From Actinomycetota bacterium (GTDB taxonomy: Bacteria; Actinomycetota; Acidimicrobiia; Acidimicrobiales; VFJN01): a DNA stretch of 64,000 nucleotides. The notes under the pieces were generated by a model. It saw nothing but the letters and a program-made list of their open reading frames with translations. It did not search any database and was not told the DNA's origin. The stretch covers positions 2,590 through 66,589 of the forward strand of contig JBKPHE010000111.1 of the NCBI GenBank assembly GCA_046744485.1, read 5' to 3'. A program made the translations under genes and the position numbers. Positions 2,616-44,976 of this stretch are shown here, in pieces (the first letter of the stretch is position 1; every line of letters begins with the position of its first letter).

Positions 2616-2915
2616 TCAGGGGGTCTTCGAGGCCAGGACGTCGGCGGGACTGATCTCCGGCGGCGAGGCGAGCAGGCGGTCGGAGTTGGCCATCAGGGCC
2701 GCGGCGATCTGGCCGTCCAGGTGCGCCTGGCGCTCGGCCTGCCCCGGGAAGGCATCGACGATCCAGAACGTGACCGGGTCGGTACGCAGGGCGAACCACA
2801 CCGGGGTGCCCTCCTCGGCGTTCGCCAGCTCGACGGCGCCGGTGAGGAACTCGGCGAGCTCGTCCTGCGTCTCCGGCTTGGCCGTCAGCTTGACGACGAG
2901 TGCAACGGTTGTCAT
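2616..2915 (-). CDS. antibiotic-biosynthesis-monooxygenase (ABM/YgiN-like) family protein
   Basis: 99-aa ORF. Size and pattern (VVKLTAKPETQDELAEFL ... WFALRTDPVTFWIVDAFPGQAERQAHL) are typical of ABM ferredoxin-fold monooxygenases. Confidence 0.65.
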   Translation of the reverse strand: MTTVALVVKLTAKPETQDELAEFLTGAVELANAEEGTPVWFALRTDPVTFWIVDAFPGQAERQAHLDGQIAAALMANSDRLLASPPEISPADVLASKTP

Positions 2916-3001
2916 GAGGACGAACCTACGCCGAGCCGGAGGCCGCGGCCACGGCCGGCGTTCCTTGGGCGCGTTCGGGCCCGGTTTTCTAGTGTGCCGA
3001 C

Positions 3002-3592: not shown

Positions 3593-3601
3593 CGGTCCCG
3601 C

Positions 3602-4459: not shown

Positions 4460-4487
4460 GGGTCACCTCCTCCGTACCTGAGCTCGA

Positions 4488-5486: not shown

Positions 5487-5550
5487 CCCCTCGGGCGTTC
5501 CCCGGCTCCCTGCTGACCCTGCGTGGCCACCGAACGATCCACGACGTCGC

Positions 5551-6585: not shown

Positions 6586-6592
6586 CGCTGCC

Positions 6593-7426: not shown

Positions 7427-7550
7427 CCCCTCGCTCGAGTCTTCGGCAACAAGTGGCCGACTGGGCCACCTGCGGAGCCTAGGGCAGGACCCCGCACCGG
7501 CCCCGTCGTCGTAAGAGCGACGGGGCCGGTGAGATGCAGCCGCCGCCGAG

Positions 7551-7733
7551 CTAGGTGTAGTCCGCCTGTGATCCTGCGGCCCCGATGAGCGCGGAGACGA
7601 GGATGCCGAGTGGCAGCGCGCCCCAGTACGAGACGTTGGCCCCGACGTTCCCCAGGAACAGCATGAGCAGCCATGTCGCCGGGAAGGTGGCGATGAGGAG
7701 CAGGACCAGGCCGCCGAGCAGCGCGGTGATCAT
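7551..7733 (-). CDS. small two-helix membrane protein
   Basis: Internal ATG at 7733 of the 107-aa ORF, preceded by GGGAGG 5 nt upstream. The 60-aa product MITALLGGLVLLLIATFPATWLLMLFLGNV... is hydrophobic. The upstream part of the tracked ORF looks non-coding. Confidence 0.5.
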   Translation of the reverse strand: MITALLGGLVLLLIATFPATWLLMLFLGNVGANVSYWGALPLGILVSALIGAAGSQADYT

Positions 7734-7812
7734 TTGACCTCCCTGTAGGTAGTGGCGACGGAGGCATACCGGATCGATCTCCCCAGTTGGTGGATCCCAC
7801 AGCGGGCCGGGC

Positions 7813-8298
7813 TTGTCGTCGTGGCGTCCGCATCCGTGCCATGGTCTCGGAGTGGACTCCCGGGCGCGCGTCATCGGTCGGCGGCTACTGGTCGCGCTGG
7901 TCGTGATCGTGCAGCTGGGGCTGGTGGCGCGCGGCTACTGGTCTGTGCACAAGGAGTTCGCGTTCCAGATGTTCCCCGAGTCGAGCACCTGGCGGGCCGA
8001 GATCGTCAGGGTGACGACCGACGGCGACCGGGTGCCCGTCACCCAACCCTGGGCGGGCTACCGGTGGGACGAGTTGGTGACGGGGCGGGGCCTGGGCCAT
8101 CCGCAGATCCGCCACCACGCTGACGCCGGGCTCGACAATCAACTGGCGTTCCTGGACGCCGCCCTCGACTACGTCGCCGACAACACACCCCGGGACGACG
8201 AAACCCGCTATCTCGAGGCGACGGTCACGACCTGGCACAACGCCGACGGGCCCGAGGTGACGGTGCTCCGCAGCGACGACCGGCCGGGCGCGACGTGA
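7813..8298 (+). CDS. hypothetical N-terminally membrane-anchored protein (first gene of HTTM operon)
   Basis: 161-aa ORF (alternative GTG start at 7852). One TM helix (LLVALVVIVQLGLVA) precedes a soluble domain. Its stop overlaps the next start (GTGA at 8295-8298). No family recognised. Confidence 0.5.
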   Translation: MSSWRPHPCHGLGVDSRARVIGRRLLVALVVIVQLGLVARGYWSVHKEFAFQMFPESSTWRAEIVRVTTDGDRVPVTQPWAGYRWDELVTGRGLGHPQIRHHADAGLDNQLAFLDAALDYVADNTPRDDETRYLEATVTTWHNADGPEVTVLRSDDRPGAT

Positions 8299-9503
8299 CG
8301 GCGACGGCCGCACCCGTCCGGCCGGCTGGCCTGGTCGGCGCCATGGACGAGCTGCTGGGCCGTCGGGTCAGCATGCGGTCCCTGGCGTTGCTGCGGGTCC
8401 TGATCGGGCCGGTGACGCTGCTGCACCTGCGCCCGTTCGTCGACGATGCGCTGGGTGGCAGGATCTATCGCGACGCGTTCTACGAGCCCTACGCGTCCTG
8501 GTATCCGGAGCTTCCCCGGCCGCTGTACGGCGCACTGCTGGCCGTCGGCGTCGCGGGGGCGCTGGCGATGTCGCTGGGGTTCTGCACCCGGGTGGCGGCG
8601 GGCGTGACCTTCGGCGTCGTCGCCTACAACCTGTTCCTGTCGACCACACACGTCCACAGCAACCGGGCCTATCTCGTGATCGTGCTGGCGGTGCTGGCCA
8701 TCGCGCCGTGCGGGCGCGAGCTCTCGGTCGATGCGTGGATTCGACAACGGCGGGGGCAGCGGCCGCTCGACCCGCGCGCCCCCGCGTGGCCGCTGTGGTT
8801 GCTGCGGTTCGAGGCCGCCGTGGTCTACGGGGCATCGGGCCTGAGCAAGCTCGTCGACCCCGACTGGCTCGGTGGCACCGTCACGTGGCACCGCATCGTG
8901 CAGGTGCGTGACCGCCTGGACGCCTCGCCCCTCCCCGGTTGGGCGGTCTCGCTGCTCGCCGACCGCTCGTTCCACACGTTCGCCGCCAAGCTGATCGTGA
9001 TCACCGAGCTGTTCATCGCCATCGGGCTGTGGTGGCGGGCGACTCGGTACGCGGCCGTGTGGCTGGCGGTGTGCTTCCATGTCGCTATCGAGGTCTCGGC
9101 TTCGGTCCAGGTCTTCTCGTACCTGGCGATCGCCGCGCTGGTCATCTGGGCGGTGCCGTCGACGCGCGATCGGGTGGTCGCGATCGATCCCGCGAACCCG
9201 AGGCACCGGCGGCTGGCACCGATGATCGGCGCCCTCGACTGGCTGGCCAGGTTCCGCGTCGTCGACGGTCCCCCAGGCGCACCGTTCACGCTCACCGACC
9301 GCAACGGCGCCGTGGCGACGGGTCCACCGGCGGTCGCCCGGGTGCTCAGCCGGCTGCCGTTGACGGCATGGTTCGCGCTGCCCACGCTGGCGCTGCCTGC
9401 CATCCGCCCGGCGCGTCGATCACCGACCCCCGACCAATCCGGCACGGCACCTGAGGGCGAAGCCGCCGAGCGATCGGGCCTCGCCGCCAGCGGCCCACGT
9501 TGA
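8295..9503 (+). CDS. HTTM (vitamin K-dependent gamma-carboxylase-related) domain membrane protein with C-terminal DCC/DUF393-like domain lacking the CxxC
   Basis: 402-aa ORF. SLALLRVLIGPVTLLHL and the polytopic core fit HTTM. The last ~90 aa (VVAIDPANPRHRRL..LDWLARFRVVD..FTLTDRNGAVATGPPAVARVLSRLP) align by eye to DCC thiol-disulfide oxidoreductases, but the DxxCxxC position reads DPANPRH. Confidence 0.65.
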   Translation: MTATAAPVRPAGLVGAMDELLGRRVSMRSLALLRVLIGPVTLLHLRPFVDDALGGRIYRDAFYEPYASWYPELPRPLYGALLAVGVAGALAMSLGFCTRVAAGVTFGVVAYNLFLSTTHVHSNRAYLVIVLAVLAIAPCGRELSVDAWIRQRRGQRPLDPRAPAWPLWLLRFEAAVVYGASGLSKLVDPDWLGGTVTWHRIVQVRDRLDASPLPGWAVSLLADRSFHTFAAKLIVITELFIAIGLWWRATRYAAVWLAVCFHVAIEVSASVQVFSYLAIAALVIWAVPSTRDRVVAIDPANPRHRRLAPMIGALDWLARFRVVDGPPGAPFTLTDRNGAVATGPPAVARVLSRLPLTAWFALPTLALPAIRPARRSPTPDQSGTAPEGEAAERSGLAASGPR

Positions 9504-11323
9504 CAATGGCTCGGAGATCGGAGCGGCCGTGGGTGCGCGTGGCGCTGGCCGCCCTCGCCTTCGCGGGCGCCGCCGTCGCGGTCTTCGGAGTGCTGTCGCC
9601 ACCCGAGCGCTGCCCGGCCGTGGACGCGGCCGAGCTGCGCGCATCGGCCACCGAGGCCGTCGACTGGTTCACGCGCAACCAGGAGCCCGACGGCACCTGG
9701 CTGTACCTCTACGACGCCGAGAGCGACACGGCCGCCGCCGACTACAACGTCGTCCGCCACATGGGCGCCGGCATGGGGCTCTACCAGGCGGCTTCCGCCG
9801 GGATCCCCGGTGCGCTGGAGGTCGCCGACCGTGGCACTGCATGGGCGCTCGGCCGGCTGTTCCAGCGTGACGACTGGGCCGCCCTCCGCTACCGCGGCGA
9901 GGTATCGTCGGGCGCGACGGCGCTTCTGGTCGCGGGGCTGGCCGAGCGGCGCACCGACACGGGAGACGATCGCTACGACGAGCTCCTCGCCCAGCTCGGC
10001 CGGTTCCTGCTGGCCCAGACCGAGCCTTCGGGTGCGGTGCTCGCCTTCTACGACGTCGGCGCCGGGCGTCCCATGCCGGGCGTGTACTCGAAGTACTACA
10101 CGGGGGAGACCTACTGGGCCCTGGCCCGCCTGAACCGCCTGTTCCCCGGTGGGCCCTGGGGCGACGCCGCCACTCGCATCGGCGCGTACCTCGCCACGAG
10201 GCGCGACGTCGACGAGGACCTCTGGCCACCCATCCCCGACCACTGGGCCGCCTACGGGCTGGCGGAGACCGTCGCATTCCGAGACCGGGAGAACGGTCAG
10301 CCGCTCACCGACGCCGAGCTGGCCTACGCGCGGCGGCAAGCGGGCCTGTTCGGCTCGCAGGTGCGGTGGGTGAGCCAGCGGTTCGGGCCGTGGGGCGTGC
10401 TCGTCAGGGGCCCACACGTCCCCCGGGGTGGCGGCTACGGGGTCGTGGGGGAGGGACTCACCGGCCTCTGGCGGGTGGCGGAGGCCGACTCTCGCCTCGC
10501 CGACCTGCGCGCCCCCCTGACCGAGCGGGCAACGTGCATCGCGGGCCTGGCGGTCCGACAGCAGTCCGATGCTGCCGAGGCCCGTGACGCGGTGGCGCCC
10601 GGACGGGTGCGGGGCGCGTGGTTCCGCGACGGCGAAACGCGCATGGACGACCAGCAGCATGCGCTGTCCGCCCTGCTGCGGACCGTCGCCATCGTCGACG
10701 CCGCGGGCGGCGACGACTCCGCCGCCGGAGGCACGGGATCGGTGGTTCGGTCGCGCCCCGCGCCGTCGGCCTGGCTCTGGCTGGTCGCGCTGGTTGCGGT
10801 GGCCAACTCGTGCCGGGTGGCGCTCGGTGTGCCCCGACGCGATCGGTCCTGCCGGGACATTGCGGTCGTGGCGGCGCTCGGCGGCGCGGCGGGAGGCCTT
10901 ACCGTCTACCTCGTCTCGCTGGCCAGCGGACCGCTCCTCGACGCGCTCGACGTCAGCGCGCCAGCGTTCCGGATCGCCGCGGGAGCGGTCGGGGCCATCG
11001 CGGGCGCGGTCGCGCTCGTGCGCCCCGCGCCCTCGCCGGAGCCGGCGTTGCCGGGCCGGGGCGCGGCCGCGGTACCGGTCGCCGTGCCGCTGGTCGCAGG
11101 CCCGGCCCTCGTGTTCCTGGCCCTCAGCGCGCACGCTGACCGCGGTGCGGGCGTGGTGGCGCTCGCGCTCGCGATCGCCGTCGGTCTGGTCGCGATCATC
11201 GCCACCCGGGTGGGGGTGGACGGCGTCAGTGGCCCCATCCTCCGCTGGGCCACGCGGGCGACGGCCGCCGCGGCGGTGGTCGCGGCCGTGCTGCTCGTCG
11301 TCGACGGCGTGTTCGCCGTCTAG
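9500..11323 (+). CDS. fusion protein: signal-anchored alpha/alpha-toroid (prenyltransferase/terpene-cyclase-like) domain plus C-terminal MarC-like polytopic membrane domain
   Basis: 607-aa ORF overlapping the HTTM stop (TTGA; alternative ATG at 9506). QW-like motifs NQEPDGTWLY and AQTEPSGAV. The C-terminal ~190 aa are hydrophobic, and DVSAPAFRIAAGAVGAIAGAVAL resembles the MarC/UPF0056 signature. Confidence 0.55.
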   Translation: MTMARRSERPWVRVALAALAFAGAAVAVFGVLSPPERCPAVDAAELRASATEAVDWFTRNQEPDGTWLYLYDAESDTAAADYNVVRHMGAGMGLYQAASAGIPGALEVADRGTAWALGRLFQRDDWAALRYRGEVSSGATALLVAGLAERRTDTGDDRYDELLAQLGRFLLAQTEPSGAVLAFYDVGAGRPMPGVYSKYYTGETYWALARLNRLFPGGPWGDAATRIGAYLATRRDVDEDLWPPIPDHWAAYGLAETVAFRDRENGQPLTDAELAYARRQAGLFGSQVRWVSQRFGPWGVLVRGPHVPRGGGYGVVGEGLTGLWRVAEADSRLADLRAPLTERATCIAGLAVRQQSDAAEARDAVAPGRVRGAWFRDGETRMDDQQHALSALLRTVAIVDAAGGDDSAAGGTGSVVRSRPAPSAWLWLVALVAVANSCRVALGVPRRDRSCRDIAVVAALGGAAGGLTVYLVSLASGPLLDALDVSAPAFRIAAGAVGAIAGAVALVRPAPSPEPALPGRGAAAVPVAVPLVAGPALVFLALSAHADRGAGVVALALAIAVGLVAIIATRVGVDGVSGPILRWATRATAAAAVVAAVLLVVDGVFAV

Positions 11324-11484
11324 CGCCCGGGCCCACTACGGGCGAGAAAGCTCGGCCGATCGGGTGGGCGACCGCTCACCGGACTTGCGGCGCTCGACGT
11401 CGCCCTTTGCCCCGACGGCCTTGACGTAGTCACGAAAACCGACGCCTTCCTCTCATGGACGGACGGTACCCGCCGCGCGTCGCG

Positions 11485-12138
11485 TCAAAGCTTGGCCTCG
11501 CACCAGACGTGGCCCTGGCTGTCGACCACGGCCACGCTCGTGATGCTGTCGGGGTCGACGTCCAGCGTGGCCCCCCACGACGAATCGTGCTCGATGTCGA
11601 ACGGCACCAGGCGCGGCGCCTGGTCGTTGCGCTCGATGCGGAGCGCGTACGTCTCGTCGGGTACGGCGTAGCGCTCGATCTGATCGCTCCAGCCGGGCAG
11701 CGTCATGAACAGTGCCGCCTCGGGCTCGCGGTTCACGAACACGTGCCCGACCACCTCGCCGGCACCCGTGCGCATGGCGGCCCCCGCCGGGGTGGGGCGA
11801 GCCGACGGGCCGAGGCCAACCGCCAGGGCTAGGGCGGCGACGCAGGCCGCGAGCCCGAGCACGGCAAGGGCGCGAGAGCCGGGTCGGGCGCGGGGGGTAG
11901 TGGGCCGTTCCACGCGGGTCAGAGACGTCAGGACCCTCTCCTGGAACCCGGCCGGCGGCTCGGCGCTGGGTGCGAGCATGAGCAGCCGGTCTGCGTCGGC
12001 TGCAAGCGTGTCCACCAGCTGCTGGCAGGTGACGCAGCCCTCGAGGTGAGCGATCGCGGCGGCCCGCTCGGCGCCACCGAGGATCTCGAGCGCCAGCTCC
12101 GGTGCAACCGCGGCCAGGTCCGCGCAGTCCATGGCCAT
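11485..12138 (-). CDS. anti-sigma factor (zf-HC2 type), single-pass membrane protein
   Basis: ATG at 12138 shares one base with the sigma gene stop (TGATG). HxxxCxxC motif (HLEGCVTCQQL), one TM helix (ALAVLGLAACVAALALAVGL) and an extracytoplasmic C-terminal domain. Confidence 0.7.
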   Translation of the reverse strand: MAMDCADLAAVAPELALEILGGAERAAAIAHLEGCVTCQQLVDTLAADADRLLMLAPSAEPPAGFQERVLTSLTRVERPTTPRARPGSRALAVLGLAACVAALALAVGLGPSARPTPAGAAMRTGAGEVVGHVFVNREPEAALFMTLPGWSDQIERYAVPDETYALRIERNDQAPRLVPFDIEHDSSWGATLDVDPDSITSVAVVDSQGHVWCEAKL

Positions 12139-12689
12139 CACGGCGACACCCCGGCGAACAGGTCCCGCAGCTTGGCGAGGGCCAGGCGGAGCCGGGTCTT
12201 CACGGTGCCGATCGGGAGGTCCCACGCCTCGCTGATCTCCCGGGTGGTCAACCCGTAGTAGGCGGCCGCCATGAGGGTCTCGCGTTGCTCGGTGGGAAGC
12301 GACCGCAGGCCGTCGGCGATCGCGGCGAGATCGCCGATCGGGCTCAACACGTCGGCGTCACCGGCCATGTCGTCGATCCCTCCCATGGGATCGACCGCCA
12401 CGTGATCCAGTCGGCGCTGGCTGGTCGTCACGTGGTCGAGGGCCGCATTCCGGGTGATCCGGAGGAGCCAGGCAGCGACAGAGCCCCGGCGCGGGTCATA
12501 GCTGGCGCCGTATCGCCAGGCGCGCACGAAGGCGTCCTGCGCCACCTCCTGGGCGGCCTGGCGGTCGCGCGTTATGGCCAGTGCGAGCCCGTAGACGCGG
12601 CCCTGGAAGCGGTTGACGAACACCCGCGCGATGTCGCCATCACCCGTGGTGAAGCCGGCAACCAGGGCCTCGTCCGACGCGTTCCACAC
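12138..12689 (-). CDS. ECF (sigma-70 family) RNA polymerase sigma factor
   Basis: C-terminal part of the 513-aa tracked ORF. Region 2 (DAFVRAWRYGASYDPRRGSVAAWLLRITRNAALD) and region 4 HTH (YYGLTTREISEAWDLPIGTVKTRL). GTG start chosen at 12689; GTG 12734 is an alternative. Confidence 0.8.
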   Translation of the reverse strand: MWNASDEALVAGFTTGDGDIARVFVNRFQGRVYGLALAITRDRQAAQEVAQDAFVRAWRYGASYDPRRGSVAAWLLRITRNAALDHVTTSQRRLDHVAVDPMGGIDDMAGDADVLSPIGDLAAIADGLRSLPTEQRETLMAAAYYGLTTREISEAWDLPIGTVKTRLRLALAKLRDLFAGVSP

Positions 12690-12770
12690 ACTGTTCTCTA
12701 CCGCCGATGCGGGGCGCGCAGATCTTTCCCCCACGAGATCCCAGCGGCGTCGCCGGCAGGTATTTCCGGT

Positions 12771-13259
12771 ATGCGGACGCAGACCAGCCCCGACGCCACG
12801 GCGTTCCCCGCCTCCTCCTCCCAGCACGCGCTGCGGCGTTGGGGCTGGCTGATCGCCCGCGGCCTGGGTGCCCTGTCCGTCCTGGCCGTCGGCGTCATCC
12901 ACCTCCAGCAGTACTACGGGCCTTACGCGGCCATCCCGACCATCGGGACCCTCTTCGTCGTGAACTTCGTGGCGGCGACGGTCATCGGCGTGGCGCTTCT
13001 CCTGCCGCTCGAGGATCTGGCCGGCCGGTGGGCCGGCGCGGTCGTGGCCCTCGTCACGGCGGGTGGGATCGCCTTGGCCGGTGGCTCGTTCGTGCTGCTG
13101 CTCATCAGCGAGCGCAGGCCGCTCTTCGGATTTCAGGAACCGGGCTACGACCCGACCGCGATCGCGCTCTCCCGGGCGACGGAGATCGCCGCCGTCGTCA
13201 TGCTGAGCACCTCGTTGGTCGCCCGGTTCGCCACCCGAGCACCGAAGGCTCGCTGGTAG
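12771..13259 (+). CDS. hypothetical four-helix membrane protein
   Basis: ATG at 12771 within the 385-aa tracked ORF, divergent from the ECF sigma gene. The 162-aa hydrophobic product has high GC3. No family recognised. Confidence 0.55.
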   Translation: MRTQTSPDATAFPASSSQHALRRWGWLIARGLGALSVLAVGVIHLQQYYGPYAAIPTIGTLFVVNFVAATVIGVALLLPLEDLAGRWAGAVVALVTAGGIALAGGSFVLLLISERRPLFGFQEPGYDPTAIALSRATEIAAVVMLSTSLVARFATRAPKARW

Positions 13260-13323
13260 CCGCAGCCGTGGGCGCGGTGCGGCGTTCCTCGCGACAAACC
13301 CCCCAACCAAGGAGATGGAGCAC

Positions 13324-13863
13324 ATGAAGCGACTACCCACCTCCGCGGCCATCGTCGCCGCCGCCCTGGCGCTGGGCGCATGCGGCTCGAGCGGCGACGA
13401 CAACAGCGACGCGTCGTCGGGGGCCCCCGCCAGCGGCGCCGCCACCGTCTCGGTCGAGCACGTCGACGGCGTCGGTGACGTCCTCTTCGACCAGGAGGGG
13501 CTGGCGCTGTACACCCCCGAGCAGGAGGCGGACGGCAAGGTGCTCTGCACTGACTCGTGTGAGGCGTTCTGGAAGCCGCTCGAGCCCGGCTCCGGCACCC
13601 CCGCCGCCGAGGCCGGCGTCGCCCGACTGGCCGTGATCATGCGCCCGGACGGCACCGAGCAGGTCACCGCCGACGGCAAGCCCCTCTATACCTTCACCGA
13701 GGACTCGAAGGGCAAGGTCACCGGCAACGACTTCTCCGACGACTTCGGCGGTCAGCAGTTCACCTGGCACGCCGTCCTGTCGGACAAGACGGGCACGGGC
13801 TCGTCCGGCGGCGGGACGCCCACCACCAGCTCGAGCAACAGCGGGTCCGGCCCCAGCTACTGA
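13324..13863 (+). CDS. secreted lipoprotein of the Yx(FWY)xxD-repeat (COG4315/Lipoprotein_15-like) family
   Basis: Lipobox LALGAC. Repeats LALYTPEQEADG..CTDSCEAFWKP and KPLYTFTEDSKG. AAGGAG lies 9 nt before ATG 13324. Paralogue at 23493-24020. Confidence 0.8.
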   Translation: MKRLPTSAAIVAAALALGACGSSGDDNSDASSGAPASGAATVSVEHVDGVGDVLFDQEGLALYTPEQEADGKVLCTDSCEAFWKPLEPGSGTPAAEAGVARLAVIMRPDGTEQVTADGKPLYTFTEDSKGKVTGNDFSDDFGGQQFTWHAVLSDKTGTGSSGGGTPTTSSSNSGSGPSY

Positions 13864-36890: not shown

Positions 36891-37781
36891 GTGCCGGACA
36901 AGCGCCAGACCTCCAAGCAGCGCCGGGCCGCCCGGAACCGGGCATCCCGTGACGCGCTCGCTGCCCGTCGGACCAACGCCGTGACCAGCGGTACCTCCCC
37001 GGGCTCGTCACGCGCCTCGAGCGCCGCTTCCACGAGCGCAGGGTCCGGGCCAGGCGCGAGCGCGTCCGCCGGCAGGCCCGGCGTCGGCGGCCTGTTGGGG
37101 GCCAGGGGCAACCGCCGCCCTGGTGATCTGGCCGTGATCCTTGCGCTCGCCCTCGCCATCGTGTCGGCGGTTTCGGTGCTCTTCTTCACCCGGGTCCCAG
37201 TGGACGACCGGGGTGAGCCGCTGCCACGGGCCTTCCAGGGGGTGGCGGTGTCCGCCCGTGAGGCGATCACCGGCGAGCAGATGCCCGACAAGAACGAGTC
37301 GTTGCTCGAGGCCAGCGGACCGGGTGTGATCCTGTACCTCGCGTTGCCGGTTGCGGTGGCGGCATTCGCGTTCTGGGCCAATCGCCGCCCCGACCGCAGC
37401 CGCCTCCTCACCTTCGCGCTGGTGGCGATGGCCGGGCTCGTGCTGTTCCTCGGCGGTTACTTCTTCTTCCCGACGCTCGTCGCGTTGGCGGTCGCGAGCT
37501 TCCAGATCCGCAAGGCCGACATGCCCGCCCGGGTGGCCGAGAGGGTGGCGCCGACTCGTGGGCGGCGCGGCGTCATCGACGCCGAGTCCGAGGAGCTCGA
37601 GGACGAGATGATCGGCGATGACACCGACCGCGCGACCGCCGACACCGAGGCGGACGACGAGGCTACGGACCGCGAAGGTGGCGATCCGCTGGCCGAGCTG
37701 GAGGCCGAGCTCGAGGCCGAGGAGCGCGCCCGGCGGGCCGGGGGCAATGGTCCGTCCCGCGGGTCGACACCGGAGGAGTGA
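36891..37781 (+). CDS. hypothetical membrane protein with basic N-terminus and acidic C-terminal tail
   Basis: GTG at 36891 within the 350-aa ORF. KRQTSKQRRAARNRA, then a Ser/Ala/Gly-rich region, three TM helices and a D/E-rich tail. Its stop overlaps the acyP start (GTGA). Confidence 0.5.
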   Translation: MPDKRQTSKQRRAARNRASRDALAARRTNAVTSGTSPGSSRASSAASTSAGSGPGASASAGRPGVGGLLGARGNRRPGDLAVILALALAIVSAVSVLFFTRVPVDDRGEPLPRAFQGVAVSAREAITGEQMPDKNESLLEASGPGVILYLALPVAVAAFAFWANRRPDRSRLLTFALVAMAGLVLFLGGYFFFPTLVALAVASFQIRKADMPARVAERVAPTRGRRGVIDAESEELEDEMIGDDTDRATADTEADDEATDREGGDPLAELEAELEAEERARRAGGNGPSRGSTPEE

Positions 37782-38089
37782 GCTCCCCGGACTCGGGTTT
37801 CGGCGACGTCGTCCGCGTGCGGGCCGTGGTCGCAGGCCGGGTCCAGGGCGTGTGGTTCCGCGAGAGCTGCCGGCATGAGGCGGAGCGCCTGGGCGTCACC
37901 GGTTGGGTGCACAACCTGCGAGACGGCCGCGTCGAGATCGAGGCTCAGGGCAGCCGGGCGGCGGTAGACGCGCTGGTGGCGTGGGCCCACGAGGGTCCCC
38001 GCCTGGCGATCGTCGAGTCCGTCACCGTCAACGCGTTGCCGGTCGTGACACCCGATTCGCCGGCGATGCGGCGCTTCGCCGTCCGCTGA
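37778..38089 (+). CDS. acyP: acylphosphatase
   Basis: 103-aa ORF. VAGRVQGVWFRESCRHEAERLGVTGWVHNLRDGRVEIEAQG is the canonical acylphosphatase signature. Confidence 0.8.
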   Translation: MSSPDSGFGDVVRVRAVVAGRVQGVWFRESCRHEAERLGVTGWVHNLRDGRVEIEAQGSRAAVDALVAWAHEGPRLAIVESVTVNALPVVTPDSPAMRRFAVR

Positions 38090-38127
38090 CGGGGCGGGTT
38101 GACGGGTGGCCCCCGGGATGCCCGCCG

Positions 38128-38796
38128 CTACGGTGCCGCCGCCGTCCCGCCGAGCGCGGCCGACGCCAGCACCGTGGCCGACTCCAGCTGCTCGGCCGCC
38201 TGCGCGCCGTCCGCACCGGCGGCGAGCCCGCTCGGTTCGGCGAGGGCGTAGATGCGGAAGTCGTAGTTGTGGGTACCCGAGGGCGGGCAGGGGCCCGACC
38301 ATCCCTGGCGCCCGAAGTCGTTGAGCTCCTCGATCGCCTGGGCGGGCGGGTCGCCGCGGGCCAAAGCGTCGACGTCGGGTGGCAATCCGGCGATGACCCA
38401 GTGGACGAACCCGTCGGCGTCGGGATCGCGGACCACCAGCGCGAGCTCCGCGGTGCCCGCCGGGACCCCGGTCCACGCCAGGGGAGGTGACACGTCGTCG
38501 CCCACGCACGTGTACTCGGGAGGGATCGGCTCCCCGTCGCCGAAGGCGGTACTGGTCAACCGCAGCGTCGTGGCGGTCGTGGGTGACGCCGCACCACCGG
38601 ACGTGCCGTCCTCGCCACCGGTCCCGCCGCCGGTGCCGGCGGCGACATCGGTCGTGGAGGGGGCGGCCGCGGTCGTGGAGGTCGTGCTCGCGGACGTGGT
38701 GGTCTGATCCGAGCCGGGTGCCCGGAGTTCCCGCCCGTCGTCGCCACACCCAGCGAGCACGAGGGCTACGGCGCCGATCGCCAATACCCATCGCAT
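38128..38796 (-). CDS. YbhB/YbcL (PEBP/Raf-kinase-inhibitor-like) family lipoprotein
   Basis: 222-aa ORF. Lipobox LVLAGC and a Thr/Gly-rich linker. PEBP motifs DPDADGFVHWV and GPCPPSGTHNYDFRIYAL. Confidence 0.8.
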   Translation of the reverse strand: MRWVLAIGAVALVLAGCGDDGRELRAPGSDQTTTSASTTSTTAAAPSTTDVAAGTGGGTGGEDGTSGGAASPTTATTLRLTSTAFGDGEPIPPEYTCVGDDVSPPLAWTGVPAGTAELALVVRDPDADGFVHWVIAGLPPDVDALARGDPPAQAIEELNDFGRQGWSGPCPPSGTHNYDFRIYALAEPSGLAAGADGAQAAEQLESATVLASAALGGTAAAP

Positions 38797-38803
38797 CGGT
38801 CGA

Positions 38804-38822
38804 GTGTTGCAGACCGATGTCG
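38804..38822. repeat. left copy of an imperfect direct repeat flanking the 38.8-42.4 kb island
   Basis: GTGTTGCAGAC-CGA-TGTCG. The 11-mer GTGTTGCAGAC and the TGTCG recur at 42417-42432. Confidence 0.45.
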
Positions 38823-39330
38823 TGGCTGTGGACAGTCAGGTCAATGTGCAGGCGGTGGTCGCCTCGATCGTGATGAGCAGGCAGGCGCTCGAGCGGGGCA
38901 GCGTCGACGCGTTCGTTAACAGTGAGCTCCGCAAGGCCGTCGACGCCGAACAGGAGCGCCTGTTCGTGCAGGGGCTGTTGGGGTCGCCGGTGTCGTTTGT
39001 GGCGACGAACACGGTCAGTCAGACGCAGGTGGGTTGTTGCGTGTTGCAGGCGGCCCGGGTCGCCTCCGATATCCGGGGGACGCCGACGAGGATCATCGCG
39101 TGGCATCCGCGCCGGTTGTTGTGGATGGGGTCGCAGCGCAGCGATGTGTCCCTGTTGGATTACGTGTTCCACAACTTGGCGGATGATGGCCACGTCGTGA
39201 ATGTCCAGAGCGGCGCGTTGCTCAGCAGCACCATCGGCTCCCAGGACAAGGTCATCGCGATGAACGGCTCCGATGTCCGTTACGCCGAGGAGCCGGCCAT
39301 CCGCGCCTACACCGACCAGTCGAGTCCCGC
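38804..39330 (+). pseudogene. phage major capsid protein (HK97-fold family), 3' fragment only
   Basis: The first ~175 aa of the 324-aa tracked ORF read IVMSRQALERGS.VDAFVNSELRKAVDAEQERLFVQG, RIIAWHPRRLLWMG and GSQDKVIAMNGSDVRYAEEPAIRAYTDQ. This matches the C-terminal half of actinophage capsid proteins as I recall them. There is no N-terminal half, and the ORF then reads through into nonsense. Confidence 0.5.
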
Positions 39331-39369
39331 TGGACGCGGAACCGCCCCCCGACCCGTAAGCCGAGGGAG

Positions 39370-39480
39370 CTACCGGGACGCCCACACCTCGTCAGTCGCC
39401 ACCTGCGCCTCCTGGCGCGTTGATATGCGACCGGGGGCGTGGAGGGCCGGCCGATCTTGGTCGGGCAGCCCTCCATTCAT
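39370..39480 (-). pseudogene. truncated paralogue (36 aa) of the 82-aa gene at 40108-40356
   Basis: Hand translation gives MNGGLPDQDRPALHAPGRISTRQEAQVATDEVWASR, matching the C-terminus ...EDPPGLSPITTVGRYATVEDAQFATDEVWASR. The DNA at 39373-39413 matches 40111-40151 with a 21-nt perfect core. Confidence 0.4.
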
Positions 39481-39526
39481 GGCCTTATCGTTGCGTGGCC
39501 GACGACCGCGACAGTTGTGCCGCGTG

Positions 39527-39955
39527 CTAGCCGGCGTTCGCGGCTACCCCGAGCCGCTCGGCTGCAGCCTGACCTTCTGCTATCGAACTGAACTCGATTA
39601 CGCAGTTGATCCGGACGGTGCCCGATATTGCCGTCCCGGTGTTCCGCATGATCCGCAGTCGGGTGTCAGACAAGCCCAACTGGGTCACCACCTGCCCGAC
39701 GATATTGCCGCCGGTGCGAGGAACCGCCCCCGTGCACGCGATACCCAAGACGCCGTCAACTTGGCCGAGGTCCGCTAGGACGAAGTGGCCGTCGGTGGGA
39801 GTGGCCAAAATATTGCTGAACACGAATGTGGATGAGCCCGCGGGTTGCGCGGCATCGACGCCCGGTGACGACCTCAGTGCAACGATGCCTGCGGCCGCGA
39901 TGACCAGGGCGAGCGCCAGCGCGAGGCGCCGCCACGACAAGATGGATGACATCAT
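39527..39955 (-). CDS. hypothetical secreted protein
   Basis: 142-aa ORF. The signal peptide (LALALALVIAAAGIVAL...VDA) precedes a probable mature protein, and GGAGGAGG lies just upstream of the tandem ATGs. No family recognised. Confidence 0.55.
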   Translation of the reverse strand: MMSSILSWRRLALALALVIAAAGIVALRSSPGVDAAQPAGSSTFVFSNILATPTDGHFVLADLGQVDGVLGIACTGAVPRTGGNIVGQVVTQLGLSDTRLRIMRNTGTAISGTVRINCVIEFSSIAEGQAAAERLGVAANAG

Positions 39956-40107
39956 GCCTCCTCCGGGGAGGAGTCAGTCGGCGGCTCCCCAGGCAGGAGC
40001 CAGTTGTCCCGCCTGCGCCTCCCAAGAGGATGGTGGGCGCATAGGAAGCGGCGGTCAACCTTGAACGAGAAGGAACCCCCTCGGACGCAGCACCGCCACC
40101 TGAGTGG

Positions 40108-40356
40108 TCACCGGGACGCCCACACCTCGTCGGTCGCAAACTGCGCATCCTCGACGGTGGCGTAGCGGCCGACAGTCGTGATCGGTGAGAGGCCGGGTGG
40201 GTCCTCGAGCCGCACGTAGGCGACCCAGCGGCCCGTCGACGATTCGAGCATTGCCCTGCGGTTCTGGAATGCCCATACACCCAACTGGTACGCCCAGTTG
40301 AAGCGGTACGACAGGACGAACGGTCCGATCGACATCAAGGTCCGGGGGCTGATCAT
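40108..40356 (-). CDS. hypothetical protein (82 aa), full-length copy of the duplicated small gene
   Basis: ORF track entry. Its start overlaps the upstream ORF stop (ATGA at 40353-40356). No family recognised. Confidence 0.5.
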   Translation of the reverse strand: MISPRTLMSIGPFVLSYRFNWAYQLGVWAFQNRRAMLESSTGRWVAYVRLEDPPGLSPITTVGRYATVEDAQFATDEVWASR

Positions 40357-40790
40357 CTGAGGCGGCTGATGCCGAAGCCCTGGATCCGCCAGCCGTCACC
40401 GGTCTCAGTGACCCAGCAGTTCCATTCGCCAGCGGCCACGTCGTAGGCGAGTGCTTCGAAGGGTTCACCGCCGGCAGTCATGCTTCCGGGTTGGGTCGGT
40501 AGCTTCGAGCGGTCGGCGATGCTGACTCGTCGACCGGCCGGCCATTGCAGGGGCCGGTCCAGATCGGCGGTCATGGTCATGGTGATCGCCCACTTATCAG
40601 CATCGGAGTAGCCAGAGAACCGGGAGCGGGCGTACTCCCACCATTCGGGCCAGCCCATCTGGGTTTCGATCTCGTCGATGAGGTCAGGGTGGAGCACTGA
40701 ACGTGCCCAGTCTGGGTCGTTGTCGTCGCAGGCCTCCATCAAGCCGATGACAGGAACGATCGGCAAGACGGTGGGGTCGATGTCGGTCAC
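40353..40790 (-). CDS. hypothetical protein
   Basis: Part of the 170-aa tracked ORF. GTG 40790 is preferred (purine-rich GAAAGGTAGAGGGG upstream); ATG 40739 and GTG 40865 are alternatives. Trp/Asp-rich, with no family recognised. Confidence 0.45.
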   Translation of the reverse strand: MTDIDPTVLPIVPVIGLMEACDDNDPDWARSVLHPDLIDEIETQMGWPEWWEYARSRFSGYSDADKWAITMTMTADLDRPLQWPAGRRVSIADRSKLPTQPGSMTAGGEPFEALAYDVAAGEWNCWVTETGDGWRIQGFGISRLR

Positions 40791-40890
40791 GGCCCCTCTA
40801 CCTTTCCACCTCTCGTCCGAATCGTCGGCACCCTCACCCCTAACCGACCTCTCGCAGGCGCTCACTGGGCCGCACAGAGGCCGCCGTCGC

Positions 40891-41118
40891 CTAGATCACG
40901 CGCGGGGGTTCACGGTCGTCGCCGACGATCCAGCCGTGGTCGACGAGGGCCCCGTATTCGGGGTGCCGGTCCCGCTCGTTCAACTCCGCGGCTACCGCTT
41001 CGGCTTCTGCCCGGTCGTCCCACGTGGCGGCACGGTCCCAGGTCGACATGACACCCTGGCGGTCGTGTGGGTGGTGGTAGGCCTCGAAGCGGCGGTGGTA
41101 CACCCGGTAGACGGTCAC
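40891..41118 (-). CDS. hypothetical protein (75 aa)
   Basis: ORF track entry with a GTG start. His/Arg/Asp-rich sequence, no family recognised and a weak Shine-Dalgarno. Confidence 0.4.
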   Translation of the reverse strand: MTVYRVYHRRFEAYHHPHDRQGVMSTWDRAATWDDRAEAEAVAAELNERDRHPEYGALVDHGWIVGDDREPPRVI

Positions 41119-41383
41119 GCCGCTGGTCTACCCCGGACGCGACGCCGCCCCCCACCCGAAGGCGAGGGGCCGCGCCGGCGTCCGGCTCCCAGTCGGAAAG
41201 GCGATGCCTAAGGGAGCTGTCCGTTCGTCGGTGCCTACCCGCACCAGCGGCGGGGCAGACGCCCACCGGCCCCAGACGGGGGGACTCGCCTGGGGCTTCA
41301 GCCAACATCAAGCTGGGGGTCTTACTCTGCGCGAGTCGGCGCCATCCCCTGTGGCACCGACGGCGGACAAGGAGGCGGAACCT

Positions 41384-41548
41384 ATGAAGCGTGCAATTGT
41401 GGCCGTCGTCATCGCGGCCGGAATCACGATTGGGTCCGTGGGGCCCGCGTTTGCTGACGCACCCCCACCCACCAACGGTGGCAATGGCGCTGGCCATAGC
41501 GGTCAGTGCACCGGCAACCCCGATGACCGTCCGGCGTCCTGTCACTGA
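41384..41548 (+). CDS. small secreted peptide precursor (54 aa; predicted 30-aa mature peptide with two Cys)
   Basis: Internal ATG at 41384 of the 114-aa ORF, with AAGGAGG 8 nt upstream. Signal peptide MKRAIVAVVIAAGITIGSVGPAFA, then DAPPPTNGGNGAGHSGQCTGNPDDRPASCH. A strong hairpin follows. Confidence 0.5.
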   Translation: MKRAIVAVVIAAGITIGSVGPAFADAPPPTNGGNGAGHSGQCTGNPDDRPASCH

Positions 41549-41564
41549 GTAACGCGACAGATTT

Positions 41565-41619
41565 GAGGTGCGGCCTGAGATGGGTCCCCACTACCTTGGG
41601 CCGCACCTCGGCCTGTTTT
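41565..41619. terminator. stem-loop with T-run between the convergent peptide and HTH genes
   Basis: GAGGTGCGGCC (41565-75) pairs perfectly with GGCCGCACCTC (41599-609) across a 23-nt loop. It is followed by GGCCTGTTTT. Confidence 0.5.
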
Positions 41620-41681
41620 CACAGCCCACGGCGCTTCATGAACCGCGACAGGTCCCGGTGGCCCCGACGACGAACCATGCG

Positions 41682-41945
41682 TCACCGGTAGAACTGCTCT
41701 TGGCCGGGTGCGTGGCGGTCGGTCGGGTGTCGGCCGTTGAACTCCTGACGCGGTCCGCTCAGCAGCCGCTCGATCGTCACGACATCTAGCCCGGTCACGG
41801 CCGCGAGGTGTTGGTAGGTGCAGCCGGCGGCGAGAGCCCGGCTCATCTCGTGGCGGGCGCTCTCGCGCCAGTGGGTCGCCTTGAGCGTGGCGTCCCAGAC
41901 TTTGGTCAGCTGGTCGAGTTGATGCTGCGGCAAGTCTTCGAACAT
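41682..41945 (-). CDS. small helix-turn-helix protein
   Basis: ATG at 41945 within the 146-aa ORF. The 87-aa product has an HTH-like segment TYQHLAAVTGLDVVTIERLL. Confidence 0.5.
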   Translation of the reverse strand: MFEDLPQHQLDQLTKVWDATLKATHWRESARHEMSRALAAGCTYQHLAAVTGLDVVTIERLLSGPRQEFNGRHPTDRHAPGQEQFYR

Positions 41946-42042
41946 CTGTTCGGAGGATAGCGGGTCGGGCAGACGCGGCGCCGCCCCCGGTCCCAGCCGG
42001 AGTCGGGGCCGAGGGCGACAGGTATACGAACCGTTATATCGG

Positions 42043-42273
42043 TCAGGTGTCCGAATTGAGGCCGGCGTCCTCGTCGAGCGGGCGGGCATGGGCCCGATCG
42101 TGAACCTCCATGAGACCCACACGGGTCACGGCGATAGCGGAGCGGCACGGCCGGGCCTGCTCCGGCTCCAACTGGTCGGTGATCTCCCCGATCTTGTCGA
42201 GGGCTCGGGTCACCGCGGCGAGCAGTTCGTCGATGTCGGCGAGCAGCAGGGCACGCACTGTAGGTTCGTTCAC
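42043..42273 (-). CDS. hypothetical protein (76 aa)
   Basis: GTG at 42273, with GGAGGT 8 nt upstream, within the 244-aa tracked ORF. Predicted helical and acidic. No family recognised. Confidence 0.45.
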   Translation of the reverse strand: MNEPTVRALLLADIDELLAAVTRALDKIGEITDQLEPEQARPCRSAIAVTRVGLMEVHDRAHARPLDEDAGLNSDT

Positions 42274-42416
42274 GATCAGGTACCTCCGGTGCCTGGTCCG
42301 GCCCCGGGGTGTCGCTGCACCGCCGGGGGACTGATGTTGTTCGGGGGAAGTTCTGCGAGTCCTGGGGCCGCGTATCCGCTGGTCAACCACTGGAAGAACA
42401 ACGGTCACGCTCCGGG

Positions 42417-42432
42417 GTGTTGCAGACTGTCG
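42417..42432. repeat. right copy of the imperfect direct repeat flanking the island
   Basis: GTGTTGCAGAC-TGTCG, matching 38804-38822 apart from a 3-nt insert in the left copy. Confidence 0.45.
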
Positions 42433-42480
42433 GCGCTCCGATGGGTAGCCCCTCGACCGCCTCGTGAAACCACAGCACCG

Positions 42481-43713
42481 ATGCGATGGCTCTTGCCCCC
42501 TGTGGCGCGGTTGCGCGCACTCCTGGGGCCGGACGCGGCCGGCGTCCGGCAGAGCCTCGTCGCGCTCGGGCTGAACTCGAGCACGAGCCTGGTGGCCGGG
42601 GCGTTCCTCGGGTCGATCACTGGAACCTTCGAGCGCTACCCGGGCCTCTTGGTCCTGGTCCCGGCCGCGATCGGGCTGCGCGGCAACATCTTCGGCTCCT
42701 TCGGCAACCGGCTGTCGACATCCATCCATGCGGGCACGTTCCGCTGGACGCTGCGACGCGAGACCGTCTTGGGTCAAAACGTCTTGGCATCGATGCTGCT
42801 CACGATGGGGATCTCGCTGGCGCTGGCCGTGGTGGCGAAGGCCATCGCCGTCGGCCTCGGCCTCGCCGACTCCATCGACCTGTTGTCAATGTCGACGGTG
42901 TCCATCGTCGGCGGGGTGCTGGGATCGTTGGTGGTACTCGCCGCGGCGCTCGGTCTGACCGGCGGGGCGGTCCGCTACGGCTGGGACCTCGACAACGTCA
43001 CGGCCCCGCTGGTCTCAACCCTGGGCGACGTGCTGACCCTGCCGGCGCTGTACCTGGGCACGCTGCTGCTGGGGATCCCAGTGGTCACCCCCACGGTGGG
43101 TGCTGTCCTGGTGCTCGCTTCGCTCGTCTTGCTCGCCGTCGGTTGGGAGTCCTCGAGCGAGGGCTTGCGGCGCATCGTCCGGGAATCGGTACCAGTGCTG
43201 GTGCTCGCCGGGTGCATCAGCGCGCTGGCCGGCGTCACACTCGAGAAGTCCTTCGCCCGCTTCGACGCCCTGCCGGCGCTGCTGGTGCTGGTTCCCGCAC
43301 ACCTGTCGAGCTCGGGGGCGCTCGGCGGCATCCTGTCGGGCCGGCTGTCGTCGAAGCTGTTCCTGGGCTTGGTCGAGCCCCAGACCACGCCCAACTGGGA
43401 GGCACGGCGCGACATCTCCCTGGTCTTCCTGCTGGCTGCACCAGTGTTCGTCTTCAACGGAGTCGGAGCCCACTGGGTCGCCCGGGCCCTCGGCGAGGCC
43501 AGCCCCGGGCTGGGCCAGATGGTCGCCGTCTCCCTCATCAGTGGGGGACTGGCCATCCTGTTCGTCGTGACCGTGGCCTACTACGGCACCGTGGCCGCGT
43601 ATCGCACCGGGGTCGATCCCGACACCTACGGCATCCCGGTGGTCAGCTCGTCGGTCGACTTCGTGGGCGCCTTCACCCTCATCATCGCCATCGCGCTGCT
43701 GGGCCTCGCCTGA
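42481..43713 (+). CDS. MgtE-like divalent-cation transporter (two tandem MgtE membrane domains, no cytosolic N-domain/CBS)
   Basis: ATG at 42481 within the 541-aa ORF. The two halves share the pattern PGLLVLVPAAIGLRGNIFGSFGNRLST and PALLVLVPAHLSSSGALGGILSGRLSS, each followed by DLDNVTAPLVSTLGD-type or DPDTYGIPVVSSSVD-type motifs. Confidence 0.8.
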   Translation: MRWLLPPVARLRALLGPDAAGVRQSLVALGLNSSTSLVAGAFLGSITGTFERYPGLLVLVPAAIGLRGNIFGSFGNRLSTSIHAGTFRWTLRRETVLGQNVLASMLLTMGISLALAVVAKAIAVGLGLADSIDLLSMSTVSIVGGVLGSLVVLAAALGLTGGAVRYGWDLDNVTAPLVSTLGDVLTLPALYLGTLLLGIPVVTPTVGAVLVLASLVLLAVGWESSSEGLRRIVRESVPVLVLAGCISALAGVTLEKSFARFDALPALLVLVPAHLSSSGALGGILSGRLSSKLFLGLVEPQTTPNWEARRDISLVFLLAAPVFVFNGVGAHWVARALGEASPGLGQMVAVSLISGGLAILFVVTVAYYGTVAAYRTGVDPDTYGIPVVSSSVDFVGAFTLIIAIALLGLA

Positions 43714-43743
43714 TCCGCCTATCGTCTGAGGTCGATACTCGCA

Positions 43744-44976
43744 ATGGACGACAGACCCCGAAATCTCCGGGCCATGCTCGCGGAGGTCAAGGACCTCTCG
43801 GAGCTCATGGTCGATCTTGCCTACGCCGCCCTCTATTTCGGCGATCCCGACATGGCGGAGGAGGTCGGCGCCCTCGAGGAGCGCATGGATGCGCTGGTGC
43901 ACGACATGCGCTCCGTCTGCGTCATGGCCGCCCGCAACCCCCGCGAGGCCGATGCCATGGCGTCGGTGTTGCAGGTGATCTCTGCCATCGAGCGCATCGC
44001 CAACGCCGCCGTCGACATCGCCCGGATCGTCACCCACCGCCTCGGCATCCCCCGCGAGCTGGTTGCCGACCTGTCCAACGCCGAGGAGGTGTCGCACCGC
44101 GTGCGGGTGCGGGACGGCTCGCACCTCGCGCGCCGCCCGCTGGCCGACCTCGAGCTGCCGGTCCAGACCGGCATGCGGATCGTCGCCATCCGGCGTGACC
44201 GGGAGTGGATCACCGACGTGGAGGGCGAGGAGATCATGCTCCCGGGCGACGTGCTGTTCCTGCGGGGATCCCCGGCCGGCATCACGCGCCTCAGGGAGCT
44301 CGCCGCCGCCCCACTGTGGGAGCCGCCGACACCGCCGGAGGACGGCACGCTCACCGACCTAGACCGGGCCATTGACGTACTGGTCGAGATGAAGAACGTC
44401 TCCGAGACGGCGGTAGGCCTGGCCTACTCGGCGCTCGTGCTGCGCGACCTGGGGCTGGCCGCCGAGGTGCGCCACCTGGAGGACCGCCTCGACGAGATGA
44501 AGGACCGCCTGGAGCTGTGGGTGCTGCGCGCCAGCTCGGGCGACATCGATCCCGCACCGCTGCGGGGACTGCTGCACCTGTCGCAGGCCGCCGAGGACCT
44601 GGGTGACTCGGCGCAGCAGATGGTCTGGCTGATCGAGAAGCACGAGGAGGTGCACCCGATCATCAAGATCGCGCTGGGGGAGAGCGACGAGGTGGTCGTG
44701 CGGGTCCCCGTGGGCCCCGGGTCGCCCGCCGACGGTGCCACCCTCCACGAGCTCCAGCTCGACGTTGATCCCGGGTTCCACGTGCTCGCCGTGCGGCGCG
44801 GTGGCCGCTACGTCTACTCGCCCCGCGGTCACGTCGTGCTGCACTCGGGGGACGAGCTCATCGCCAGCGGGCCCGACGAGGGCCACCCCCTGCTCGCGGC
44901 TCGCCTGGGCTGGCGTCTCGAGGAGGACGAGGACACGGGCCAGGAGCGGCTCGAACCCCTGGCCGGCGTCGGCTGA
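43744..44976 (+). CDS. cytosolic regulator with duplicated PhoU-like plus TrkA-C (RCK_C) modules
   Basis: 410-aa ORF. Two repeats each pair a helical PhoU-like segment (ELMVDLAYAALYFGD / ETAVGLAYSALVLRD) with a TrkA-C-like beta domain (LADLELPVQTGMRIVAIRR / LHELQLDVDPGFHVLAVRR). Confidence 0.7.
   Translation: MDDRPRNLRAMLAEVKDLSELMVDLAYAALYFGDPDMAEEVGALEERMDALVHDMRSVCVMAARNPREADAMASVLQVISAIERIANAAVDIARIVTHRLGIPRELVADLSNAEEVSHRVRVRDGSHLARRPLADLELPVQTGMRIVAIRRDREWITDVEGEEIMLPGDVLFLRGSPAGITRLRELAAAPLWEPPTPPEDGTLTDLDRAIDVLVEMKNVSETAVGLAYSALVLRDLGLAAEVRHLEDRLDEMKDRLELWVLRASSGDIDPAPLRGLLHLSQAAEDLGDSAQQMVWLIEKHEEVHPIIKIALGESDEVVVRVPVGPGSPADGATLHELQLDVDPGFHVLAVRRGGRYVYSPRGHVVLHSGDELIASGPDEGHPLLAARLGWRLEEDEDTGQERLEPLAGVG

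Follow-up and report, generated by a model that had tools for sequence, protein, structure and literature searches.

A decayed remnant of horizontally acquired DNA with an HK97-type capsid gene fragment between two divergent genes of an Acidimicrobiales bacterium

The window analysed here, a stretch of 64,000 nucleotides from contig JBKPHE010000111.1 (assembly GCA_046744485.1; all unlabelled coordinates are positions in this 64-kb window), comes from an Acidimicrobiales bacterium of the kind recovered as soil metagenome-assembled genomes, as judged from its MgtE-like gene and the neighbours of that gene. Between a gene for a PEBP-family lipoprotein and a gene for an MgtE-like transporter, which are divergently oriented and separated by 3684 bp, it carries a block of short open reading frames (ORFs), referred to below as the island. 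The island represents horizontally acquired DNA that has decayed and is no longer mobile, and it sits in a divergent promoter region. We favour, at a probability of about 0.6, a history in which a capsid-bearing integrative element entered at an 11-nt motif by site-specific recombination and subsequently lost its integrase-proximal two-thirds. An earlier interpretation made without database searches (the sequence-only reading) had taken the block for the stump of an integrated phage-derived element, whose surviving small genes may be retained cargo. Its composition, an empty site in a relative and the identity of the capsid family support that view and refine the source, which was more probably a small, satellite-like integrative element encoding a capsid protein than a full phage. 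The outcomes that would have spoken against a stump, namely a block kept in all relatives, the lack of a capsid fold, or junctions at which the repeat is not conserved, were not what we found.

The composition of the island deviates from that of its host. Its G+C content is 66.6%, compared with 70.6% for the window, and is the lowest among all 3.6-kb stretches, while its tetranucleotide distance is the largest in the window (rank 1 of 303, z 3.5). At third codon positions, the G+C fraction (GC3) of the island ORFs is 0.78-0.87 vs 0.88-0.92 in the flanking genes. This shift had been foreseen from two hand counts (33/60 and 41/60 G+C), both of which proved exact on recount, and a deviation of this kind from the host is characteristic of site-specifically integrated genomic islands. 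The chromosomal flanks themselves are ordinary genes. On the left, the PEBP-family lipoprotein gene (38128-38796, reverse strand) matches Pfam PF01161 with E = 2e-32, and its protein is kept from residue 1 in the related loci L001-L007 and L026; on the right, the gene for the MgtE-like divalent cation transporter (42481-43713, forward strand) matches PF01769 with E = 2e-25.

Both edges of the island carry the same 11-mer, GTGTTGCAGAC, at 38804-38814 and 42417-42427 on the forward strand, and these are its only two occurrences in the 64 kb. The expected count is 0.03, and none of 100 shuffled sequences contained two copies. Relatives of the locus were fetched through the MgtE-like protein, and the flanking proteins were mapped on the best 80 of the 247 loci. 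The divergent arrangement of the PEBP and MgtE-like genes is conserved. Among them, L002, whose MgtE-like protein is 94% identical to that of the window, represents the empty site: its PEBP and MgtE-like genes are 72 bp apart, with a single copy of the 11-mer at the position equivalent to the left copy of the window. The join in L002 reads ...CATCGGTCGA - GTGTTGCAGAC - TGTCGGCGCTCC..., that is, the left flank of the window, one 11-mer and the right flank of the window. Direct repeats at both junctions combined with a one-copy empty site in a relative are the signature of a genomic island. The sequence-only reading had proposed both the repeat at the block edges and an empty site joining the PEBP gene start to the MgtE-like leader with one repeat copy, and on these points it was borne out. 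Its further suggestion that each copy continues into TGTCG, after a 3-nt insert on the left, fell within chance (1239 of 2000 shuffles did equally well or better). The nature of the repeat also has to be corrected, as it does mark both junctions but is a host motif that is found without variation ahead of the MgtE-like gene. The right copy is part of a 15-mer, GTGTTGCAGACTGTC (42417-42431, forward strand), which is conserved in distant relatives.

The first ORF of the island is an internal fragment of a gene for an HK97-fold major capsid protein (38804-39340, forward strand; GC3 0.87), corresponding to approximately residues 204-391 of a 426-aa homologue. An exhaustive HMMER search returned nine homologues with full lengths of 403-426 aa, which are 32-72% identical over the alignment, whereas a word-indexed search recovered one only. 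Six full-length homologues, up to 50% identical to the fragment over the alignment, pass the threshold of Pfam PF05065 (Phage_capsid) with 36-40 bits vs a cut-off of 24.2. A profile hidden Markov model built from the nine homologues matches the window only at 38804-39340 (E = 2e-69, model positions 177-382 of 416), and the N-terminal half of the capsid protein is found nowhere in the whole window. By itself, the fragment gives no Pfam match even at E <= 10, a weak match to phrog_2263 'major head protein' (E = 0.03), and chance matches only in a sequence search of the PDB. The fold was assigned through the homologue P0003 and not through the fragment. An AlphaFold model of P0003 (predicted local distance difference test score, pLDDT, 66) retrieved phage capsids and encapsulins when searched against the PDB with Foldseek, and its match to HK97 prohead II (E = 5e-11, probability 1.00, template-modelling score 0.71) identifies the HK97 fold. 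The family model, the PF05065 matches of the homologues and this structural comparison agree, so the capsid identity first suggested by eye holds. The ORF had been described as the C-terminal piece of a capsid protein without its N-terminal half; the HK97 type and the missing N-terminal half both stand, but about 35 C-terminal residues are gone as well. Without these and the approximately 200 N-terminal residues, the fragment is not a complete gene for an assembling subunit.

The exact start of the capsid homology bears on how the left junction arose. The homology is confident from Asp-Val onward (38816), and the codons of the 11-mer, read as V-L-Q-T and followed by D-V, fit the family pattern V-x-x-x-D-V, the closest homologue having V-T-Q-T-D-V. 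We infer that the left junction formed where the capsid gene happens to resemble the host motif.

What a more complete carrier of this capsid gene looks like can be seen in the homologues with readable context, which lie in integrative elements of 9-13.5 kb. In L083, a locus from an Acidimicrobiales genome, the element spans 262-13848 with 105-nt direct repeats 13.5 kb apart at its ends; these repeats resemble the 3' part of a tRNA gene. The gene order is tyrosine integrase, HTH_17 excisionase-like protein, a topoisomerase-like protein, a DUF3854/DUF3631 protein, small ORFs, S78 head protease and capsid protein, and the capsid gene is followed by 4.4 kb of mostly reverse-strand small ORFs, one of which encodes an XRE-type helix-turn-helix protein. 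In L113-L115 (4634-13692 in L113), which like L083 are contigs of Acidimicrobiia type, the order is integrase, HTH_31, HTH_17, AAA_25 replication protein, capsid gene and reverse-strand small ORFs, and in L085 a DUF3987 protein and small ORFs lie ahead of the capsid gene. A set of integrase, regulator, replication gene and capsid gene is thus present in L083 and in L113-L115. As Pfam and PHROG matches revealed no portal, terminase or tail gene in the capsid-bearing elements, we refer to them as satellite-like, and those in L083 and L113-L115 are candidate phage satellites of Acidimicrobiia. The window shows the same layout, with the capsid gene pointing inward, then reverse-strand small ORFs including a helix-turn-helix gene, and then the element end. 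To judge from this arrangement, the island corresponds to the capsid-distal end of such an element.

On the favoured reading, three steps would lead to the present island. First, the element would have integrated into GTGTTGCAGAC by site-specific recombination, leaving one copy of the motif at each end. Second, a deletion, probably aided by the chance near-match within the capsid gene, would have taken out everything between the left attachment-site copy and a point about halfway along that gene; this one event would suffice for the observed layout. Third, smaller rearrangements would have removed the 3' end of the capsid gene and reduced a second member of the small-protein family represented by the 82-aa ORF described below to a fragment. 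The survivors would be the capsid-distal accessory end and a right arm of about 45 nt next to the right motif copy. Both repeat copies probably persist because each of the two flanking genes needs the motif.

Several observations weigh against this history. Apart from the capsid fragment, no ORF of the island has a homologue in the capsid-bearing elements, and an unfiltered tblastx comparison of the island with the capsid-bearing loci gave high-GC noise only. The integrase of L083, used as a probe, has no homologue anywhere in the 64-kb window, and at this site no integrase, intact element or capsid gene occurs in the 80 related loci. The satellite-like character of the source is also affected, since portal and terminase genes were sought through Pfam and PHROG only and several small ORFs of the capsid-bearing elements carry no annotation. 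Furthermore, a search of IMG/VR viral contigs found no member of the 82-aa family, so DNA from more than one element may be combined in the island. Finally, three relatives (L003, L007 and L066) hold only 49-61 bp, without genes, between two motif copies, which may reflect an initial short duplication, with cargo arriving later by other routes.

This last point leads to the chief competing explanation, which we regard as possible though distinctly less probable: an insertion hotspot that has no dedicated integrase. Here, duplication of the motif or illegitimate insertion mediated by microhomology would make a spacer in which foreign DNA accumulates, the cargo would turn over by illegitimate recombination and by homologous recombination in the flanks, and selection would keep one motif per gene. 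Several observations on the related loci fit this explanation. In addition to the three gene-free variants, two motif copies surround unrelated inserts in L006 (6909-9946; approximately 3.0 kb with genes for the alkylmercury lyase MerB and for MerR), L026 (8768-9946; 1.17 kb with a gene of the glyoxalase/bleomycin-resistance family), L088 (1305-2658; 1.35 kb with a 17-nt repeat at the junctions) and L011 (255 bp without genes). The contig of L087 ends within its island (51-2165), which encodes a 602-aa membrane-like protein and a relative of the 82-aa ORF, and in L004 (1990-2523) and L005 an ORF of about 110 aa lies at the site. The cargo is unrelated between close relatives, and no island at the site has an integrase. 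The right copy of the motif stays perfect while the 3' part of the left one is degraded, as would be expected if the copies served different genes, and the left junction of the window coincides with a stretch of the capsid gene that may be a microhomology. As a separate observation, L023 (6678-8438) has a 586-aa gene with a HEAYPGHHWH motif between the PEBP gene and the 11-mer; this gene occupies the place beside the motif, which is not duplicated in this locus.

Three features of the same loci are difficult to reconcile with a hotspot of this type. The first is the precision of the boundaries, as the duplicated core, although its length varies between 9 and 17 nt, has the same first base in all cases, including independent islands, and is short and sharply bounded. 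The second is the behaviour of the flanks, for which a tandem duplication predicts similarity. Past the duplicated core they are no more alike than shuffled sequences; in L003, L007, L066 and the window they look similar by eye, but local alignment against 2000 shuffles was not significant, and a tandem-duplication origin of the repeat was therefore set aside. The third is the right arm (42371-42416, forward strand), which lies directly before the right repeat copy. These approximately 45 nt (type A) are common to four islands with different cargo, those of the window, L026, L087 and L088, and they occur neither in the empty site of L002 nor elsewhere in the 1.49 Mb of fetched loci. A second type of arm (type B), GGTACACCGC..., is common to L001, L003, L006 and L007. 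In a neighbour-joining tree of the MgtE-like gene only, the window groups with L003, a type-B locus, apart from the other genomes with type-A arms. This hints that the arm moved horizontally, with the reservation that a single gene is weak evidence. An arm conserved beside different cargo, even in a window whose MgtE-like gene groups with L003, resembles the end of an element.

A further explanation, which we consider unlikely, treats the locus as a cassette-like docking site. Integrase-less gene modules, each with the arm of about 45 nt and then GTGTTGCAGAC at its end, would be captured and exchanged at the one conserved promoter motif by a recombinase encoded elsewhere in the genome, in analogy to integron cassettes or Xer-dependent modules but at an unrelated site and in Acidimicrobiia. 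The modules seen so far would be the capsid-fragment block, MerB/MerR, the glyoxalase gene and the membrane protein gene. No nearby recombinase, attC-like structure or match to a known core site was found. In particular, an integron cassette array was rejected, as the window contains no tyrosine recombinase, there is no conserved or covarying hairpin, and GTTGCAG does not fit the GTTRRRY core; for the right arm, RNAalifold on the four type-A sequences gave -11.5 kcal/mol and no covariation, and an attC-like hairpin there was discarded.

Similarly improbable is descent from a temperate phage of full size (about 40 kb) whose integrase, replication, packaging, tail and lysis genes have all been lost. 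It is true that the capsid fragment is of HK97 type and that most contigs with capsid homologues are too short to show their context. On the other hand, all readable contexts are 9-13.5-kb elements without detectable portal, terminase or tail genes, with the repeats of L083 only 13.5 kb apart, and searches of 50,697 phage records and of IMG/VR found no relatives of the capsid family. A native, vertically inherited region with fast-evolving lineage-specific genes and a coincidental repeat has next to no credibility, for although part of the block is 95% identical in a second sample, this idea conflicts with the empty site of L002, the single-copy sites of more distant relatives, the absence of the island ORFs from the 80 related loci, the deviant composition, the truncated capsid gene, and a repeat expected only 0.03 times.

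The insertion point is itself strongly conserved. About 60 nt upstream of the ATG of the MgtE-like gene, the 15-mer GTGTTGCAGACTGTC shows no variation in L001-L035 and L066, even where the surrounding sequence has fully diverged. In single-copy genomes, the start codon of the divergent gene is just 7-9 nt away from it. On the PEBP strand the motif presents AACACT, six bases ahead of the ATG; the opposite strand presents CAGACT. From this placement we infer that the 15-mer carries core promoter or operator elements for both divergent genes, possibly as an operator or as an overlapping, divergently acting core promoter. A scan for consensus promoters and terminators gave nothing over shuffle expectation, and a search for riboswitches or leader RNAs over 37000-44000 with Rfam at E <= 1 gave one chance-level match only. 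The possibility that the 15-mer is a phage attachment site (attP) was examined and dropped, as its 20 exact matches in IMG/VR lie mostly on low-GC contigs and the inspected ones fall inside coding regions, and they were treated as chance. A third copy, comprising the first 9 nt of the repeat, GTGTTGCAG, at 39041-39049 within the VLQAAR motif of the capsid fragment was likewise dismissed, as the homologues use Leu codons other than TTG and the number of near-matches to GTGTTGCAG in the window is within chance. The starts of the two flanking genes share a further peculiarity. A 13-nt perfect inverted repeat, ACCGATGCGATGG, at 38788-38800 and 42477-42489, spans both start codons; both proteins begin with M-R-W, and neither gene has a Shine-Dalgarno sequence. 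The inverted repeat is present with 1 mismatch in the close relative L002 and absent from the distant relative checked by eye.

All of the ORFs listed by the sequence-only reading are present at the sizes given, but the statement that every one of them lacks a family requires amendment. The 82-aa ORF (40108-40356, reverse strand; called as 75 aa in the NCBI record, P0011) belongs to a large family of uncharacterised small proteins with at least 285 homologues, canonically about 98 aa long, in which the C-terminal 46 residues (...WVAYVRLEDPPGLSPITTVGRYATVEEAQVATDEVWASR) are nearly invariant. The material for this family comprises proteins P0011-P0130 and the loci L110 (8001-8297) and L111 (8001-8306), and many of its database entries are C-terminal stubs of 46-47 aa. 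No Pfam model covers the family, and a search of IMG/VR viral contigs did not detect it; the ORF gives a weak match to phrog_3026 (E = 0.005), a family of unknown function. A 36-aa ORF (39370-39480, reverse strand) holds a 3' fragment of a second gene of this family. Its homology is confined to 39373-39432, where tblastn with the C-terminal consensus gives 80% identity over 20 aa, and a 42-nt direct repeat, 90% identical, connects 39372-39413 with the 3' end of the 82-aa ORF at 40110-40151.

The 145-aa ORF (40353-40790, reverse strand) has a single homologue, P0010, which is 97% identical and comes from another sample. Its 1-kb contig, L109, is 95% identical to the window at 40226-41269, and the divergence is uneven, with 4 of 438 nt differing in the 145-aa gene and approximately 29 of 228 nt, plus a 2-nt indel, in the 75-aa ORF (40891-41118, reverse strand; GC3 0.87). 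To judge from these counts, the 75-aa ORF is possibly decaying. A single-sequence AlphaFold model of the 145-aa protein was unusable (pLDDT 48) and was not taken to a fold search. Searches of the phage records with the 145-aa and 82-aa ORFs by tblastn gave nothing meaningful.

The 87-aa ORF (41682-41945, reverse strand) is helix-turn-helix-like, with a sub-threshold match to DUF6003 (E = 4e-5; 23.8 bits vs a cut-off of 35.4) and weak PHROG matches to DNA-binding proteins. Two other ORFs have a signal-peptide-like start. The 142-aa ORF (39527-39955, reverse strand; GC3 0.78) has a strong Shine-Dalgarno sequence, GGAGGAGG, before its ATG and matches no Pfam or PHROG family, whereas the 54-aa ORF (41384-41548, forward strand) is preceded by AAGGAGG but has a flat G+C content across codon positions (0.65/0.64/0.67), so its status as a gene is uncertain. 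The 76-aa ORF (42043-42273, reverse strand; GC3 0.82) resembles, at 53% identity, a 30-aa stretch near the 82-aa-family gene of L110. That locus brings together the family member, the 76-aa-like remnant, a gene for a secreted protein and the C-terminal part of a tyrosine integrase gene, and because these are joined with an integrase fragment, the 82-aa family and 76-aa-like genes travel with integrative elements. The integrase fragment abuts a gene for bacterial RNase P RNA (L110, 9524-10277; Rfam RF00010, 195 bits), which suggests that the L110 element had integrated at rnpB. The same region of L110 also holds IS110 and Mutator-type transposases.

As for mobility genes in the window itself, no tRNA gene was found, and no integrase or transposase family was matched by the island ORFs in Pfam or PHROG. 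Together with the integrase probe, these searches uphold the original remark that no integrase, tRNA or transposase is visible.

The island is, in itself, a typical decayed remnant of a mobile element, and its by-products are more interesting than the remnant. It provides a cleanly resolved pair of filled and empty sites in uncultured soil Acidimicrobiales, about whose mobile elements hardly anything is known. A second gain is a family of small integrative elements with an HK97 capsid gene and an optional protease gene, which are candidate satellites of Acidimicrobiia. The island also draws attention to an invariant 15-bp motif at two divergent genes that serves as a recurrent insertion point, organomercury-resistance genes being among the cargo, and the site may be useful as a marker of gene flow in these populations. 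The large uncharacterised small-protein family of the 82-aa ORF is a further by-product.

When compared with established classes of mobile DNA, the island is not a prophage, as the structural, packaging, lysis and replication modules are represented by one internal capsid fragment only, and no other island ORF has a significant match to a phage family (best PHROG E = 0.005). Nor does it behave as a transposon or insertion sequence: there is no transposase, the repeat length ranges between 9 and 17 nt, and many genomes have their insert at this one site. A single capsid-protein homologue is already known from satellites, for example Ccm of the Staphylococcus aureus pathogenicity island SaPIbov5 (PMC8569155). 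Like such capsid-carrying phage-inducible chromosomal islands (PICIs; PMC8569155, PMC5052747), the elements of L083 and L113-L115 combine an integrase, a regulator or excisionase-like helix-turn-helix protein, a replication gene and one HK97-type capsid gene, a likeness in gene content. There is no sequence relationship to genes of the staphylococcal islands, the host is an uncultured Acidimicrobiales bacterium, and the window keeps only the capsid fragment and accessory ORFs. As the window lacks the integrase, regulator and primase or replicase of a PICI-type satellite, what we claim for the island is descent from a satellite-like element and not membership in that class. The capsid-forming PICIs have a core of portal, large terminase, small terminase or HNH protein, and head-tail adaptor and connector (PMC10085698). 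L083 resembles them as an integrative element of about 14 kb with its own capsid protein and head protease, but none of these core genes was detected in L083, in L113-L115 or in the window, and the elements do not belong to that class.

A close parallel is offered by degraded integrative elements with repeats derived from attachment sites. The island shares with them a deviant composition, short junction repeats, a one-copy empty site, a truncated structural gene and the loss of mobility genes. It differs in its target, which is a motif of 11-17 bp in a divergent promoter region instead of a tRNA or tmRNA gene, and in that no island at this site has an integrase. As in hotspots between core genes, the same interval holds MerB/MerR, a glyoxalase gene, a membrane protein gene or the present island. 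Unlike in such hotspots, the variable segment is bracketed by sharply bounded copies of a motif and several of the islands have a right arm in common, which argues for a specific site rather than for flanking homology alone.

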